NCBI GenBank assembly: GCA_036825545.1
Contig: DAISYB010000020.1
Location: 11-64,010 of the forward strand
Direction: 5' to 3'
Origin: Crocinitomicaceae bacterium
GTDB lineage: Bacteria > Bacteroidota > Bacteroidia > Flavobacteriales_D > Crocinitomicaceae
Length of the DNA: 64,000 nt
Below are positions 1 to 5,238 of the stretch, piece after piece; the first letter of the stretch is position 1; each line of letters starts with the position of its first letter. Below the pieces are notes generated by a model. The model was not told where the DNA came from and did no database searches. It worked only from the letters and a program-made list of their open reading frames with translations. The position numbers were made by a program, and so were the translations under genes.

Positions 1-50
1 GTTTACTTTAAAAAGTCGGCACGCCGCCAAGCCCGCTGCCGTTATTTGCA
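1..50 (+). repeat. 3' portion of an attC-like site cut by the window edge, ending in the core-like sequence GTTATTTGCA
   Basis: A GC-rich imperfect hairpin (cggca 17-21 / tgccg 37-41) runs directly into GTTATTTGCA (41-50). That 10-mer is the exact reverse complement of TGCAAATAAC at 3204-3213, at the far end of the downstream two-gene unit. Confidence 0.45.
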
Positions 51-86
51 ATATTGCACCACAGTAAGCATTAAACGATTAATATT

Positions 87-94
87 TATTTTTG
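87..94 (+). promoter_or_regulatory. Candidate Bacteroidota sigma-A -7 box (TATTTTTG, consensus TAnnTTTG) upstream of the methylase gene
   Basis: Exact match to TAnnTTTG. It lies just before an A8 run and the in-frame region that encodes the conserved methylase N-terminus. Confidence 0.35.
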
Positions 95-164
95 AAAAAA
101 AAGTCATCTGGAACTAGAAAAAACATATAAACCATTTTTACGCTGGGCAGGAGGCAAAAATTGG

Positions 165-923
165 TTGTTAAAGAATTTAAACGATTACTTACCTAAAAAG
201 GGATTCAATAATTACATAGAGCCATTTTTAGGAGGGGGATCAATATTTTTTTATTTATCTCCGAAAGATGCAATTCTATCAGATCTAAATAGTGAATTGA
301 TTGAAACATATTGTATTTTAAGAGACTCTGTGGAGCCAATTATTGATGTATTACAAACCTATTCGAATACAGAATCATTCTACTATCAAATTCGATCAAA
401 AATTCCAAAATCGGAAATTGAAAGAGCTGCAAGATTTATTTTCTTAAATCAAACATCATTTAATGGTATTTATCGAGTAAATCTCAAAGGAGAATACAAT
501 GTCCCATATGGATTTCGAACGAAAAATTTTCTTCAGGAAGAAAACCTTCGTTCTGCTAGCGAATGTTTAAAAAGTGTAATTATCAAATCAAGAGATTTTT
601 ATCGCTCTTTGGAGGATGTCAAAAAAGGTGACCTTGTAATTCTCGATCCACCATACACGGTTACTCACAATAATAATGGATTCATTAAATACAATGCAAA
701 ATTATTCGATTTAAATGCCCAAATTGCCCTAAGTAAATACATTGATTGTGTCAATGAAATAGGAGCAAATTATATCTTGACTAATGCCGCCCATGAAGAT
801 ATAAGAAAGATTTTCACTCGAAAACATAACGTTATTGAAACAACGAGTAGAGCAAGCTTAGTTGGTGGGAGTAAGGCCAAAAGAGGTAAATATGACGAAT
901 TTATTATTACAAACATTCATTGA
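165..923 (+). CDS. Dam-family (D12 class) N6-adenine DNA methyltransferase
   Basis: Motif I is EPFLGGGSIFF and motif IV is DPPY (645-656). NQTSFNGIYRVN is typical of Dam/DpnM enzymes. The conserved KPFLRWAGGK box is encoded in frame upstream (129-158) of the first canonical start, so the true start is probably near 108 (CTG). The coordinates given are those of the ORF track. Confidence 0.85.
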   Translation: MLKNLNDYLPKKGFNNYIEPFLGGGSIFFYLSPKDAILSDLNSELIETYCILRDSVEPIIDVLQTYSNTESFYYQIRSKIPKSEIERAARFIFLNQTSFNGIYRVNLKGEYNVPYGFRTKNFLQEENLRSASECLKSVIIKSRDFYRSLEDVKKGDLVILDPPYTVTHNNNGFIKYNAKLFDLNAQIALSKYIDCVNEIGANYILTNAAHEDIRKIFTRKHNVIETTSRASLVGGSKAKRGKYDEFIITNIH

Positions 924-925
924 AA

Positions 926-3202
926 ATGGACGATAACACTAGAATATCTTTATCAGGTAAATTACTCAGCGGGAATGAGTTAAAAAAAGAACTGAATTCC
1001 AGAAAAAGGGAATTTATTTATGAAAGTGTACCAAAGTCTTTAAAAGATGAATTTGAATCAGATGGATGGAAATTAGATAAGGAATTTAAAACAAAGTATA
1101 AATTCAAAAAACTAAAAGAAACTGATATTCAATTTGAAGATCAAGTATGGACATTACTCGCAAATTTGGGTTTTACATTTTTAAACAAAGACAGAAATTT
1201 CAATATCCCATATGATAAAGAAGGTAACACTCAACAAATTGACGTAATAGCGAAGGATGATGAATCAGTTTTAATTATTGAATGTAAAGCTTCGAAGGAG
1301 AAAAATAAAAGGGCTGATTTCAAAAAGGATCTGGAAGCATATTCAAGTAAAATAGGTGGTATTTTGCAATCTGTCAAAGAATTATTTCCAAATTCAAAAT
1401 TAAAATTCAAGTTCATCCTAGCAACCTCAAATTATGCGGTTAGCGAACTAGATTTAGAACGACTAGCAAACATTGGTGGCATTCATTTGGACGAAGAAGC
1501 AATTAATTATTACGGTGAAATGCATAGTCAAATTGGTTTAGCTGCGAGGTATCAATTATTAGGCAGTCTTTTTGAAGGTCAAGAAATTCCCGAAATTCAA
1601 AATGAGATCCCTGCAATACAAGGTAAAATGGGAGGACATACGTATTATTCATTCTCAATTGAACCTGAAAAGCTTCTTAAAATAGGATATGTATTACACA
1701 GAAATAAAGCCAATAGAAAAATGATGCCAACATATCAAAGAATTATTAAGAAGGCTCGAATTAAATCTGTTCAAGAATTTATAGATAATGGCGGTTATTT
1801 TGCAAATTCTATAATAATTAGTATTACAACGAATAATAAGAAATTAAAATTTGACAGAGCAAATACTCAAGTTAAAGATTCCATAGCAGATATTGGTATT
1901 CTTCATCTACCAAAAAAATATAGATCAGCTTTCATTATAGATGGCCAACATCGGTTATATGGATATTCAAACTCTACCTATAAAGCAAAAAATTCAATTC
2001 CTGTTGTTGCGTTTATTGATTTGGATAGAGAAGAACAAGTGAAATTATTTATGCAAATAAATGAAAATCAGAAAGCTGTCCCAAAAAATTTAAGAAATAC
2101 TCTTAATTCTGATCTTCTATGGACTTCTGATAGCTTGCTAGATCAATTTAGAGCAATAAAATCCAGAATTTCATTGGAATTAGGTGAGAACAGAAATTCA
2201 GCATTGTATGACAGAGTTATTATTGGTGAAAATAAAAAAAACAATCTAAGATGTATAACTACCGATACAATTATTAGAGCAATTGGAAGAACAAACTTTT
2301 TAGGAAAAGTTACTAAAACTAAAATTGAAAATCCAGGCTCATTTTACAGAGGGGATTTGGATGATTGTTTCGATAAATTATCTGATTTCCTTATTAGGTC
2401 TTATTCTTATTTAACCGATAACGTCCAAGAAGAATGGAAACGTGGAGAAGATAGTATAATTGGTATAAACAAGGGGGTGTATGCCTATATTATGATCTTA
2501 GGTGATATTGTTGACTTTCTTCTAGAAAACAATATTTGTACCCCTAAGAGTTCATCAAAAGTGTTGTTTGAGGAAAGCAAGACATACATAGACCCGATAA
2601 TTAATTTTTATCTTGAAATTAAACCTGATACTGCTGAAGAATTAAAATCAAAACACGGATCAGGTGGAGATACAAAATACTGGCGTACCTTGCAGTTGGC
2701 TGTTAGAAAAGTACATCAAAATTTCAATCCATTAGGATTAGATGATTATCTAAAAAAGGAAGCTCGAGAGTACAATACTGAAGCATTCAAATATATTAGA
2801 GATATTGAAACTTATTTTAAAGATGATTTTAAAAATAGACTCGAGGATTTTTTCGGTTCTTCTTGGTTTAAAAAAGGTGTGCCGCCTCAAACTGCAAAAA
2901 AAGCTAATGAACTTGCTTTCGACAAAAATTTGACAATTGAAAATGTGGAAGATGAAGTTGACGCATGGGATTGTTTAACAATAATTGCATATAGATCCAT
3001 TGCTGTAAAGAATTGGAGAGAAATCTTTGAAGAACATTATACGAGACCGGGTGAAGAAAAAATGCAAGGAGGTAAAGAAGCAAAGACTGAATGGATGGTA
3101 AAATTGGAAAAACTAAGAAATGAAAACTTCCATCAATATTCAGTGACCGAAGAAGAATTTGATTTTTTACAATCTATTCATGAATGGCTGATTGAAAAAT
3201 AA
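926..3202 (+). CDS. Large fusion protein: N-terminal PD-(D/E)xK nuclease-like core, central DGQHR (DndB/DpdB/ParB-like) domain, C-terminal HEPN-like Rx4H motif
   Basis: IDVIAK..VLIIECK gives D at 1241-1243 and ExK at 1280-1288. FIIDGQHRLYGY places DGQHR at 1940-1954, followed by FMQINENQKAV. LRNENFH lies at 3116-3133. The ATG at 926 is 2 nt after the methylase stop codon; the TTG at 920 in the ORF track is less likely. Confidence 0.7.
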   Translation: MDDNTRISLSGKLLSGNELKKELNSRKREFIYESVPKSLKDEFESDGWKLDKEFKTKYKFKKLKETDIQFEDQVWTLLANLGFTFLNKDRNFNIPYDKEGNTQQIDVIAKDDESVLIIECKASKEKNKRADFKKDLEAYSSKIGGILQSVKELFPNSKLKFKFILATSNYAVSELDLERLANIGGIHLDEEAINYYGEMHSQIGLAARYQLLGSLFEGQEIPEIQNEIPAIQGKMGGHTYYSFSIEPEKLLKIGYVLHRNKANRKMMPTYQRIIKKARIKSVQEFIDNGGYFANSIIISITTNNKKLKFDRANTQVKDSIADIGILHLPKKYRSAFIIDGQHRLYGYSNSTYKAKNSIPVVAFIDLDREEQVKLFMQINENQKAVPKNLRNTLNSDLLWTSDSLLDQFRAIKSRISLELGENRNSALYDRVIIGENKKNNLRCITTDTIIRAIGRTNFLGKVTKTKIENPGSFYRGDLDDCFDKLSDFLIRSYSYLTDNVQEEWKRGEDSIIGINKGVYAYIMILGDIVDFLLENNICTPKSSSKVLFEESKTYIDPIINFYLEIKPDTAEELKSKHGSGGDTKYWRTLQLAVRKVHQNFNPLGLDDYLKKEAREYNTEAFKYIRDIETYFKDDFKNRLEDFFGSSWFKKGVPPQTAKKANELAFDKNLTIENVEDEVDAWDCLTIIAYRSIAVKNWREIFEEHYTRPGEEKMQGGKEAKTEWMVKLEKLRNENFHQYSVTEEEFDFLQSIHEWLIEK

Positions 3203-3203
3203 A

Positions 3204-3290
3204 TGCAAATAACATGCACTAAGCAAAATGGCGCAACAATTACTCTCGAAAGAAAGCGCCACATTGCCTAGTGCAGAACCGTTAGAGTAC
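3204..3290 (+). repeat. attC-like imperfect palindrome A (end of cassette 1, start of cassette 2)
   Basis: TGCAAATAAC, then 1 nt, then arm 3215-3234 tgcactaagcaaaatggcgc, a 21-nt loop, and arm 3256-3275 gcgccacattgcctagtgca (17/20 paired). This is followed by gaacc and GTTAGAGTAC (3281-3290). Confidence 0.6.
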
Positions 3291-3333
3291 ATCACCCACA
3301 CCCGGCCTACTCCCGAAATAAATTTGGAAAATA

Positions 3334-3354
3334 GTAACTTATAAGTTACATTTG
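3334..3354 (+). promoter_or_regulatory. Perfect 16-bp palindrome (likely TA operator) overlapping a -7 promoter box
   Basis: GTAACTTATAAGTTAC (3334-3349) is a perfect palindrome. TACATTTG (3347-3354) matches TAnnTTTG. The toxin ATG follows 4 nt later. Confidence 0.5.
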
Positions 3355-3358
3355 CATC

Positions 3359-3727
3359 ATGAATCAAAAAGTCCGCGAAGTTGTTGAATTTGAGAATCAC
3401 TTTAGTGAATTCCTTATGAAGCAACCCAAAAAGGTTCAGAACAAGATATTTAAGATAATTGAAGCGATTGAAACACTTGAAAGAGTGCCGAGCAATTATC
3501 TGAAAATGCTTGTTGGAACCAATGGACTTTATGAAGCAAGGATCCAATTAGGATCTGATATTTGGAGAGTATTTTGCTTTTTTGACAATGGAAAACTGGT
3601 CATTTTATTAAATAGCTTCACAAAGAAGACTCAAAAGACTCCTAAAAATGAAATTGAAAAGGCACTGCAATTGATGCAGAAGTATCACGCCAGTAGGCGG
3701 ACAGGTTATGACACAAAAAAGAAATGA
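3359..3727 (+). CDS. Type II toxin, RelE/ParE superfamily (HigB / phage Gp49-like)
   Basis: 122 aa. The pattern LYEARIQLGSDIWRVFCFFDNGKLVILLNSFTKKTQKTP is typical of Gp49/HigB-type toxins. The gene sits directly upstream of an XRE-type HTH gene. Confidence 0.8.
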   Translation: MNQKVREVVEFENHFSEFLMKQPKKVQNKIFKIIEAIETLERVPSNYLKMLVGTNGLYEARIQLGSDIWRVFCFFDNGKLVILLNSFTKKTQKTPKNEIEKALQLMQKYHASRRTGYDTKKK

Positions 3728-3728
3728 C

Positions 3729-4019
3729 ATGAGCACAAGAAGTTGGAAAGAAATCAAAGATGAAGTATACGGTAAAAAAGGTACTTCTCGTCGTGATGAG
3801 TTGGAGCGTGAATTCGAGTCATTTAAGATCGGGTTGCTTCTAAAAAAGGCTCGGGAAGAGAAACACTTAACCCAAGAACAACTTGCGGAATTAGTGGATA
3901 AGAAAAGAACTTACATTTCGAGAGTTGAAAATGATGGGAGCAATATGACGCTCAAAACATTATTTGAAATTGTCGAAAAAGGTTTGGGTGGAAAAGTTAA
4001 AATATCCATCCAAATTTAA
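3729..4019 (+). CDS. XRE-family helix-turn-helix antitoxin (HigA-like)
   Basis: LLLKKAREEKHLTQEQLAELVDKKRTYISRVENDGSNMTLKTL is a canonical XRE HTH. The ATG at 3729 is 2 nt after the toxin stop. The alternative in-frame start at 3708 would overlap the toxin gene. Confidence 0.8.
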   Translation: MSTRSWKEIKDEVYGKKGTSRRDELEREFESFKIGLLLKKAREEKHLTQEQLAELVDKKRTYISRVENDGSNMTLKTLFEIVEKGLGGKVKISIQI

Positions 4020-4026
4020 TTTAGAC

Positions 4027-4109
4027 GTACTCTAACACACAGTAAGTAAAATGGCGCACGAACATACTCAAGAGATTGCGCTACTTCGCCTACTGTGGGA
4101 TCATTAGTC
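4027..4109 (+). repeat. attC-like imperfect palindrome B (end of cassette 2)
   Basis: GTACTCTAAC (4027-4036) is the reverse complement of 3281-3290. Then 1 nt, arm 4038-4058 cacagtaagtaaaatggcgca, an 18-nt loop, and arm 4077-4097 tgcgctacttcgcctactgtg. This is followed by ggatc and ATTAGTC, where the core G is replaced by A. Confidence 0.6.
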
Positions 4110-4126: not shown

Positions 4127-4582
4127 ATGAAAACACTAAAAATCACAATTATTTGTGCCATATTTTCAATGGCCATCCTTTCGTGTAAAAAAAATGTCAG
4201 CGGATGTACAGATCCAATGTCTGACAATTACACCGCCGAAGCAAACGTAGAAGATGGAAGTTGTAATTATCATGGGAATCTGATTGCATGGTATGATACA
4301 ATTACCCGTGATAGTCTACTCGCTAATAACGTAGCATCAGTTACTATATTTGTGGATAATGAAACATTCCAAAATATCAATCCTTCCTTTATTCTTTGGT
4401 CCTCTCAACCAGAATGCAGTACAAGTTCAATAGGCAATTGGATAACCATGCAAGGTGTAAAAAACAAGACCATTTCCGTTACTGCAAAAGCATCTGATGG
4501 TTCTAACTCAGAGATCCGCAGTTGGAGTCAGTCAATGACTATAAATGCTGGTGAATGTAAACTTTACCAGATAATTTGGTAA
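4127..4582 (+). CDS. Small lipoprotein, function unknown
   Basis: Signal peptide and lipobox in MKTLKITIICAIFSMAILSC. A Cys-bounded motif CTDPMSDNYTAEANVEDGSC follows. The track ORF start at 4076 would run through the attC-like element, so the ATG at 4127 is preferred. Confidence 0.6.
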   Translation: MKTLKITIICAIFSMAILSCKKNVSGCTDPMSDNYTAEANVEDGSCNYHGNLIAWYDTITRDSLLANNVASVTIFVDNETFQNINPSFILWSSQPECSTSSIGNWITMQGVKNKTISVTAKASDGSNSEIRSWSQSMTINAGECKLYQIIW

Positions 4583-4754: not shown

Positions 4755-4827
4755 TATTCCACAATTACCAAATCTAAATCGTTCAAAACTCTTTTCAAAA
4801 GGCTGGAAGTCGACCGTGCTTATTTCC

Positions 4828-4835
4828 TATTTTTG
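4828..4835 (+). promoter_or_regulatory. Candidate -7 box TATTTTTG, 4 nt upstream of the ATG at 4840
   Basis: Exact TAnnTTTG match. The box-to-ATG spacing is the same as at 3347-3354/3359 and 21580-21587/21592. Confidence 0.4.
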
Positions 4836-4839
4836 CCTG

Positions 4840-5238
4840 ATGATCCGTTTACTCATTCTTTGTATAGCGATCCTCTCCTTCTCCGCTGCGTGCACCAAAG
4901 GTCATGGCAACAAGTTGGAAAGTGATAAGCTGGATATCTACTTTGAATTCAAAGAAGATGAAAATCTTGCTGCAGGTATCGGAAAGTACTGGAAAAACAA
5001 CGGACTCACAGGTGAACAGAAACAAACACTTCGCCTCACCAAAGATGATCAGTCCTACCTCCTTCAATTGATCGCCAATGATCCAAAAGAAGTAAAAAAC
5101 ATGCCTTTCTCTGAGCTGAAATTGCTACTGGAACTGCAGAAGTCGCTCAATGAAGAACTTTTCTCTGAAACGAAGTCACTAGAGATCATGATTTGTGACG
5201 GATCGTTTAATGCCATCCAAAACATTAATGAATTATGA
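4840..5238 (+). CDS. Hypothetical lipoprotein, first gene of the 4840-10475 operon
   Basis: MIRLLILCIAILSFSAAC is signal-peptide/lipobox-like. The stop overlaps the next start (ATGA at 5235-5238). The track start at 4816 (GTG) is less likely, given the -7 box at 4828-4835. Confidence 0.55.
   Translation: MIRLLILCIAILSFSAACTKGHGNKLESDKLDIYFEFKEDENLAAGIGKYWKNNGLTGEQKQTLRLTKDDQSYLLQLIANDPKEVKNMPFSELKLLLELQKSLNEELFSETKSLEIMICDGSFNAIQNINEL

Follow-up and report, generated by a model that had tools for sequence, protein, structure and literature searches.

DNA modification proteins of the DndB kind have been described as combining a ParB-like domain with a HEPN domain, and COG1479/DGQHR proteins as being fused to PD-(D/E)xK and HEPN domains (PMC3632139). 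A survey of HEPN domains lists a Swt1-like HEPN domain fused to ParB (Saro_3948), describing neither a pairing with a methylase nor a function (PMC3710099). PD-lambda-5, a two-gene system with a D12-like methylase, has been described as a 'highly compacted ... RM+Abi system' (Vassallo et al. 2022, PMC9519451). Integron cassettes, according to a recent preprint, store defence systems (bioRxiv 10.1101/2024.07.02.601686). Here we analyze a stretch of 64,000 nucleotides (nt) of contig DAISYB010000020.1 from a Crocinitomicaceae bacterium, referred to as the window. It contains a gene cassette (cassette 1) with two genes, encoding a Dam-type DNA methylase and a protein of 758 amino acids (aa), here called Big, for which PD-(D/E)xK, DGQHR and HEPN domains are predicted. 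An earlier note on this DNA had proposed the pair as an uncharacterised, methylation-linked defence system.

The pair is best filed as a real, widespread and uncharacterised methylase-linked module, that is, as a variant of defence of the restriction-modification (R-M) type and not as a categorically new kind. The observation behind the proposal is confirmed, while its defence interpretation is partly supported. The earlier note knew of no experimentally characterised system of the same composition, and no experimental study of the methylase-Big pair came up in our literature search, which covered DGQHR, DndB-HEPN and Dam-linked systems; there is also no PADLOC system model or solved structure for it. 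The note had also mentioned ParB/DndB-HEPN fusions in HEPN surveys, correctly, as Saro_3948 demonstrates. The building blocks (ParB-HEPN fusions) are thus known from computational surveys.

Gene linkage and domains of the pair

The first gene encodes a D12-class N6-adenine methylase. The motifs named in the earlier note, KPFLRWAGGK (motif X, 129-158), FLGGGS and DPPY (645-656), are all present, and the profile matches agree with them (PF02086, 1.5e-45; TIGR00571 'dam', 1.4e-65, above its cutoff; PADLOC MTase_II, 6.5e-95). The closest solved relatives are DpnM (2dpm, 3.5e-49) and E. coli Dam (2.7e-31). Since both are GATC enzymes, the methylase is likely to be GATC-specific as well, judging by this similarity. 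Its stop codon (TGA, 921-923) is followed after 2 nt by the gene for Big, which runs from ATG at 926 to TAA at 3200-3202. Two genes only, this spacing and a second product of ~760 aa are what the note had read.

The association of both genes was examined in 80 genomic loci, 77 of which have enough flank. A Dam homologue was found in 72 loci, lying directly upstream on the same strand in 64, within a complete DpnII system in 7 and divergently transcribed in 1. Five of the eight loci without a tblastn Dam match carry a divergent D12 methylase of 399-416 aa in the operon, and the remaining three are cut by contig ends. Two of these five divergent enzymes match PF02086 (~9e-18) and the other three cluster with them by sequence. 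A D12-class methylase is consequently in the operon in 77 of the 77 loci with enough flank, and the methylase linkage that the earlier note wished to see checked by neighbourhood analysis is close to universal. The two genes overlap by 4 nt in 33 of 56 adjacent pairs, their sequence identities co-vary (r 0.63; 0 of 999 permutations as high), and no complete methylase copy has lost DPPY or motif X. A D12 methylase also lies next to the gene in four of six relatives at 28-35% identity, placed upstream, downstream or convergently.

The pair moves as a unit. Homology between the window and its closest relative (locus L081, where the large protein is 90% identical) is confined to the two genes, beginning ~15 nt before the start codon and ending at the stop codon. 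No conserved flanking genes were found across the 80 loci, and a search for a defence-island signal in the flanks returned only scattered defence-like neighbours (SIR2_2, an ORC/CDC6-like ATPase). In some loci (L055, 6714-6929; L082, 5009-5170) the methylase is preceded by a small HTH_3 gene that resembles the controller (C) proteins of Type II R-M systems. Such C-protein-like genes made up two of the seven small upstream open reading frames tested, and the window cassette has none.

Big belongs to a large family. It has 2,839 matches in the 90%-clustered database, the top 120 being nearly all full length and 57-90% identical, and 511 clusters at 50% identity score E <= 1e-30 against it. Full-length proteins (745-790 aa) make up most of the top 150 representatives at 50% identity, even where identity to Big falls to 28%. 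The family occurs in Bacteroidota, Actinomycetota, Bacillota, Pseudomonadota, Patescibacteria and other groups, and no full-length homologue was found in the phage collection. Many database entries (P0004 and P0010, for example) are labelled 'DNA sulfur modification protein DndB' with no accompanying dnd genes, which is likely a systematic misannotation. Defence inventories miss the family because its members are mislabelled 'DndB' or 'DGQHR domain-containing protein' and because PADLOC 2.0 has no system model for it.

The three-domain composition proposed for Big held up, firmly for DGQHR and with weaker but consistent evidence for the other two domains. The DGQHR domain, of the ParB/Srx superfamily, is matched by TIGR03187 (2.2e-43, above cutoff), PF14072 (DndB, 2.5e-17) and PADLOC DpdB (2.1e-21), and its assignment is firm. 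In 79 aligned homologues, which are the sample for all residue counts given here, the DGQHR motif is invariant in 78.

A PD-(D/E)xK nuclease domain at the N-terminus is well supported by sequence and model, its activity being predicted. The profile matches are all sub-threshold (CARF_PDDEXK, 5e-4; Card1_endonuc, 0.0012; NERD, 0.0063). A full-length AlphaFold model has a predicted local distance difference test score (pLDDT) of 77, falling below 50 in the DGQHR core at residues 245-296 and 333-359. With this model, the top Foldseek matches in the PDB (1xmx, 9u49, 5gke, 1y88, 6xl1) are all PD-(D/E)xK nucleases. The nucleases matched comprise VC1899, Cdn1, EndoMS/NucS, AF1548, Card1, Can2, McrC and Hjc, at a probability of ~1 and E values of 2e-3 to 2e-2, which are marginal, and the matches are confined to the N-terminal nuclease domain. 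The layout E71/D72...D106...E119-C-K121 is typical of the fold, and its residues are conserved: D72 in 99% of the homologues, D106 in 92%, E119 in 84% and K121 in 82%, with arginine in its place in another 10%.

The C-terminal HEPN domain is probable, and this call rests on sequence profiles and the motif because the structural search gave no significant match for this region. In six of seven divergent members the C-terminus has HEPN_Swt1 as its best Pfam match (4.7e-6 to 0.017), all under the 27.5-bit cutoff. R731, N732 and H736 are conserved in 92%, 96% and 92% of the homologues. A separate model of the C-terminus is all-helical (pLDDT 89), and Foldseek returned nothing significant with it, the top match being the C-terminal HEPN domain of yeast Swt1 (E 2.6). 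The structural comparison asked for in the earlier note hence yielded the N-terminal PD-(D/E)xK matches, with marginal E values, and no significant HEPN match. A profile of the Big family searched against all PDB chains gave no match at E <= 1.

Some loci have further partners. Where the methylase is of the divergent type, it is accompanied either by an ABC-type ATPase plus an HNH protein or by a radical SAM enzyme plus another DndB-like protein. The first arrangement occurs in L045, L047 and L080, with a D12 methylase of 399-406 aa, an AAA_21/ABC-type ATPase of ~600 aa and an HNH protein up- or downstream of Big; the second is seen in L052 and L058. Two further loci, L085 (plasmid pNL1, NC_009426.1, 8341-12481) and L086 (8470-12693), have a distant full-length Big homologue beside a conserved triad, in which a second and shorter DGQHR protein is joined by a radical SAM enzyme and an ATP-binding protein. 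This triad may be an undescribed DNA-modification module, and its position next to Big hints at a possibly unknown DNA modification pathway. Finally, L037 (Pedobacter jejuensis, 1221-3925), the one locus with a truncated methylase, looks like a decaying system: its methylase is reduced to the C-terminal 135 aa, and its Big has D106N, E119Q and K121R as well as DSQHR, the only DGQHR variant seen.

Proposed function and alternative readings

The pair shows two features of a Type II R-M system, namely a methyltransferase with intact catalytic and S-adenosylmethionine-binding motifs (its gene having no in-frame start here) and a conserved linkage of methylase and nuclease genes; the PD-(D/E)xK-like domain of Big would be the candidate endonuclease. 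In the reading that we prefer, and to which we give an even chance, methylase and Big would be a self-contained, mobile, R-M-type defence module with a multi-nuclease effector, captured as an integron cassette. What the sequences show directly are the domain identities and their conservation, a methylase that is linked to Big almost without exception and co-evolves with it, a mobile gene pair and genuine cassette borders. The parallel decay of methylase and Big in L037 also speaks for this reading, as do the seven loci inside DpnII systems, which tie Big to GATC methylation. The methylase would mark host DNA with N6-methyladenine, most likely at GATC. The DGQHR module of Big, with its ParB/Srx fold, would bind DNA, probably under nucleotide control, and read the presence of the cognate mark. 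On DNA without the mark, it would license the N-terminal Card1/NucS-like PD-(D/E)xK DNase and also the C-terminal Swt1-like HEPN RNase, the latter as a second, growth-arresting output. The methylase would be translated first and be translationally coupled to Big, so that self DNA would be protected before the effector builds up. We infer that methylation restrains the effector rather than activating it, that its presumed targets are phages, and that a logic of restriction plus abortive infection may operate.

Extended to the whole family, this becomes a more speculative and at present doubtful idea: a large untouched defence family (~500 clusters, many phyla) in which one chain would read methylation and drive both a DNase and a HEPN RNase, merging restriction and abortive infection. 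The same effector chassis would then be re-used with Dam alone, with a full DpnII system, with a D12 methylase, an ABC ATPase and an HNH protein, or with radical SAM, DGQHR and ATPase proteins.

Several observations weigh against the R-M-type reading. The first is local and had been overlooked in the earlier reading of the sequence: the window methylase has no in-frame start, although it lies beside an intact effector. Its frame opens after TGA at 93-95 and contains no ATG, GTG or TTG until the TTG at 165, downstream of motif X. In L081 the methylase starts at a TTG that corresponds to 92-94 of the window, where the run of eight A that follows is one base too long and shifts this codon out of frame (+1 nt). 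A Bacteroidetes-type -7 box (TAnnTTTG, 87-94) that overlaps the homologous TTG was judged uninformative in AT-rich DNA. A classical R-M system would not tolerate a methylase with no start unless there were a sequencing error, a bypass or another GATC methylase in the genome. The frameshift could reflect an error in sequencing the homopolymer, a genuine change that inactivates the gene or makes it phase-variable, or a slippage site; with its start frameshifted, the local copy of the methylase may not function.

It is accordingly possible, if on balance doubtful, that the local cassette is a decaying or silenced copy whose methylase was knocked out or phase-switched by the extra A. Among ~75 homologous methylase genes, a start codon precedes RWAGGK in all others, usually by 5-25 codons, and the window gene is the only exception. 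One A fewer would restore the TTG start (TTG-KKSHLELEKTYKPFLRWAGGK), colinear with L081. The cassette also lies at the distal end of the array, and cassettes in that position are usually expressed only weakly from the integron promoter. Both frames are otherwise intact, however, with all catalytic motifs present. A sequencing error in the homopolymer is a competing explanation, and transcriptional or translational slippage at the run, or initiation at an in-frame CTG at 108, could yield some product. Decay would in any case concern the state of the local copy and not the nature of the module.

The second difficulty for R-M-type defence comes from seven loci (L005, L006, L008, L009, L010, L012 and L018) that place Big inside complete DpnII systems, in the order DpnM-like methylase, R.DpnII (PF04556, 9.1e-96), Big and DpnA-like N6_N4 methylase. 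With R.DpnII beside Big, there would be no need for another enzyme to restrict the same unmethylated site. Coexistence without redundancy would be possible if Big sensed modification in the manner of SspE: methylated self DNA would stimulate its DGQHR/ParB-like nucleoside triphosphatase (NTPase), which would drive the nuclease on invaders, Big alone would be non-toxic and the methylase would be needed for defence, not to protect self DNA. An intact effector beside a start-less methylase would then be tolerable, too. The architecture is analogous to that of SspE, GmrSD and BrxU, in which DUF262, a ParB-like NTPase, is joined to a nuclease, and the literature brings these proteins together, SspE being equated with DndB in PMC10853773 and COG1479, DUF262 and DGQHR being grouped in PMC3632139. 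Against this stand the methylase-first operon with its 4-nt overlap and the occasional C-protein-like regulator, both typical of self-protecting R-M systems, as well as the different nucleases (PD-(D/E)xK and HEPN in Big, HNH in SspE) and the absence of DUF262 models among the Pfam and NCBIfam matches of Big. We regard SspE-type sensing as unlikely.

The third set of objections concerns the nucleases. Both the PD-(D/E)xK and the HEPN assignments are below curated thresholds. The glutamate of ExK (E119) is absent in 13 of the 79 homologues (16%) and the HEPN R/H residues in 5, with the methylase still intact, and so neither nuclease is indispensable. Together with the seven DpnII-embedded loci, the loss of the ExK glutamate means that Big is not simply 'the' restriction enzyme. 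In addition, distant full-length homologues on alphaproteobacterial plasmids, pNL1 among them (28-30% identity), have the radical SAM triad as their neighbour and no Dam. Two ideas about the losses were dropped. That ExK loss tracks the presence of another nuclease is ruled out, since the DpnII-embedded and HNH-linked copies retain ExK; and no complementary loss of the two motifs can be claimed, since a double loss would be expected only about once by chance among the 79 homologues and none was seen.

These losses in subsets of the family, with DGQHR as the only firmly assigned and invariant domain, would suit a Big that is an accessory or regulator of modification, like DndB or DpdB, loading the methylase, tuning its expression or limiting over-methylation, with nuclease-like domains that mainly bind nucleic acid. 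DndB has been described as an ATP-modulated regulator of modification. Big is also found in complete DpnII systems, where an endonuclease is already present, and near other putative modification modules (radical SAM, DGQHR and ATPase). We nevertheless consider an accessory role quite improbable. The catalytic residues are kept in 84% (PD-(D/E)xK) and 92% (HEPN) of the homologues across phyla, which argues for enzymatic nucleases, and no member of the sample lacks both motifs. Big is also far below the equivalog cutoffs of DndB and DpdB, and Dam-type methylases function without accessory factors.

The integron cassette and its neighbourhood

Cassette 1 has the structure of an integron gene cassette, with attC-like sites whose imperfect inverted repeats and complementary R'' and R' cores lie across G|TT junctions (Table 1). 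The R'' core of its own attC-like site (AAATAAC) is the reverse complement of the R' core GTTATTT at the left border, and CTCTAAC in the next attC-like site (4030-4036) is that of GTTAGAG at the right border. The segment 3203-3295 forms a strong DNA hairpin (-15.5 and -17.6 kcal/mol; z -4.1 and -4.6), none of 200 shuffles being as good, and a copy related to this attC lies at 4033-4058 (repeat family D5). Core complementarity and hairpin substantiate the G|TT-bounded unit 42-3281 delimited in the earlier note, and the AT-rich composition reported there is found as well, with a guanine plus cytosine (GC) content of ~30% against 40-45% in the downstream backbone. The array extends past the left end of the window. 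Cassette 1 would add a Bacteroidota example to the defence-storing integron cassettes (bioRxiv 10.1101/2024.07.02.601686).

Table 1. Coordinates of the gene pair, its predicted domains and the cassette borders in the window; all features are on the + strand.
Feature	Coordinates	Strand	Evidence or landmarks
Integron-type gene cassette 1, with the two-gene module	42..3281	+	attC-like borders, R''/R' complementarity, hairpin, low GC
3' end of the preceding attC-like site	1..47	+	R' core GTTATTT at 41-47, G|TT junction 41/42
TTG homologous to the methylase start of the closest relative, then A8 run	92..102 (TTG 92-94; A8 95-102)	+	alignment with L081
DpnM/Dam-type D12 N6-adenine DNA methylase, open frame	96..923	+	PF02086, TIGR00571, PADLOC MTase_II, 2dpm
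Big, 758-aa predicted effector (PD-(D/E)xK, DGQHR, HEPN)	926..3202	+	profiles, conservation, model
Predicted N-terminal PD-(D/E)xK (Card1/NucS/VC1899-like) domain, aa ~60-215	1103..1570	+	D106 1241-1243; E119-C-K121 1280-1288
DGQHR domain (DndB/DpdB-type, ParB/Srx superfamily), aa ~228-527	1607..2506	+	DGQHR motif 1940-1954
Probable C-terminal all-alpha Swt1-like HEPN domain, aa ~600-758	2723..3199	+	R731-N-E-N-F-H736 at 3116-3133
attC-like recombination site of cassette 1	3203..3290	+	R'' AAATAAC 3207-3213; R' GTTAGAG 3281-3287

The neighbouring cassette (3282-4109) carries toxin-antitoxin genes, as previously noted. They lie at 3359-3727 and 3708-4019, overlapping by 20 nt, and encode a Gp49/HigB-like toxin (PF05973, 8.1e-22) and an HTH_3 antitoxin (2.1e-12). 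The attC-like site of this second cassette (~4030-4109) has a degenerate R' core (ATTAGTC for GTT...) and forms a weak fold (z -1.3). The segment 4583-4660 was considered as a third attC and rejected, since it does not fold as a hairpin. Two small predicted lipoproteins follow the array (4128-4582 and 4816-5238, with lipobox-like LSC and AAC). The GC content climbs from ~37% to ~44% between 4.5 and 5.5 kb, where the array ends and the backbone starts.

Comparison with known systems

No system model of PADLOC 2.0 fits the pair, which gave single-gene matches to MTase_II/oMTase, PD-Lambda-5_B and DpdB and weak ones to CARF_PDDEXK/Csx1. The two cassette genes include none of the core genes of BREX or DISARM (PglZ, BrxC; DrmA/B/C helicase, PLD proteins). 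The cassette has no dnd genes, and dpd genes are absent from the cassette and from the 80 related loci. The earlier view that the pair matches no named system thus stands for PADLOC, Dnd, Dpd, BREX and DISARM. It does not stand in full for R-M systems: in formal terms, a methylase and a PD-(D/E)xK protein already make up the smallest Type II gene set, and therefore a statement that the pair is unlike type I-IV R-M is true only of the nuclease architecture.

DpnII/MboI, Type II R-M systems acting on GATC, resemble the pair in several respects. The D12 methylase is nearest to DpnM and is tightly coupled, in a two-gene arrangement, to a protein with a PD-(D/E)xK domain; the module is mobile with variable flanks and occasionally has a C-protein-like helix-turn-helix gene upstream. 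However, the partner is a three-domain protein without similarity to R.DpnII (PF04556), in the seven loci named above it stands beside a true R.DpnII and another methylase of the DpnA kind, and some members have lost ExK.

With DndB and DpdB, Big shares the DGQHR domain and a gene position beside a DNA-modifying enzyme. In contrast to them it has no dndACDE or dpdA nearby, its partner is a methylase, and it is twice as long, with an extra N-terminal PD-(D/E)xK domain. Its scores against the DndB equivalog TIGR04172 (84.9 bits, cutoff 450) and the DpdB equivalog NF041060 (76.7 bits, cutoff 300) are low. The 'DNA sulfur modification protein DndB' labels are misleading because of these sub-cutoff scores, the missing dnd and dpd partners and the different architecture. 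If the proposed function is true, the DGQHR domain of DndB and DpdB gains its first functional context outside sulfur and deazaguanine modification, in methylation-linked immunity.

SspE, GmrSD and BrxU likewise join a nucleotide-binding, DNA-sensing domain of the ParB/Srx fold to a nuclease and are tied to DNA modification. They differ in having DGQQR where Big has DGQHR, and HNH where Big has predicted PD-(D/E)xK and HEPN domains. Whereas these enzymes are modification-dependent or modification-sensing, the direction of control in Big is only inferred. The best structural matches of the N-terminal domain (Card1, Can2, Cdn1, VC1899 and NucS/EndoMS), marginal as they are (E 2e-3 to 2e-2), have the same E...D...ExK layout; these are CARF-controlled or mismatch-repair nucleases, whereas no CARF domain was detected in Big. 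A full-length, 30%-identical homologue of Big is found on plasmid pNL1 of Novosphingobium aromaticivorans DSM 12444, the organism to which Saro_3948 of the HEPN survey belongs by its locus-tag prefix, and the two may be the same gene.

Two systems are comparable in concept. One is PrrC-EcoprrI, which like other R-M loci has an embedded HEPN RNase, proposed to act as a second line of defence; PrrC, however, is encoded separately and contains an ABC-ATPase domain. The other is PD-lambda-5, whose PD-Lambda-5_B model is matched by the window methylase (5.4e-12). Big, however, has no match to PD-Lambda-5_A at E <= 0.01, and at that sensitivity the effectors are not homologous. Should the proposed function hold, restriction and an abortive-type output would be united in one protein of a compact two-gene system, easy to test in E. 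coli.

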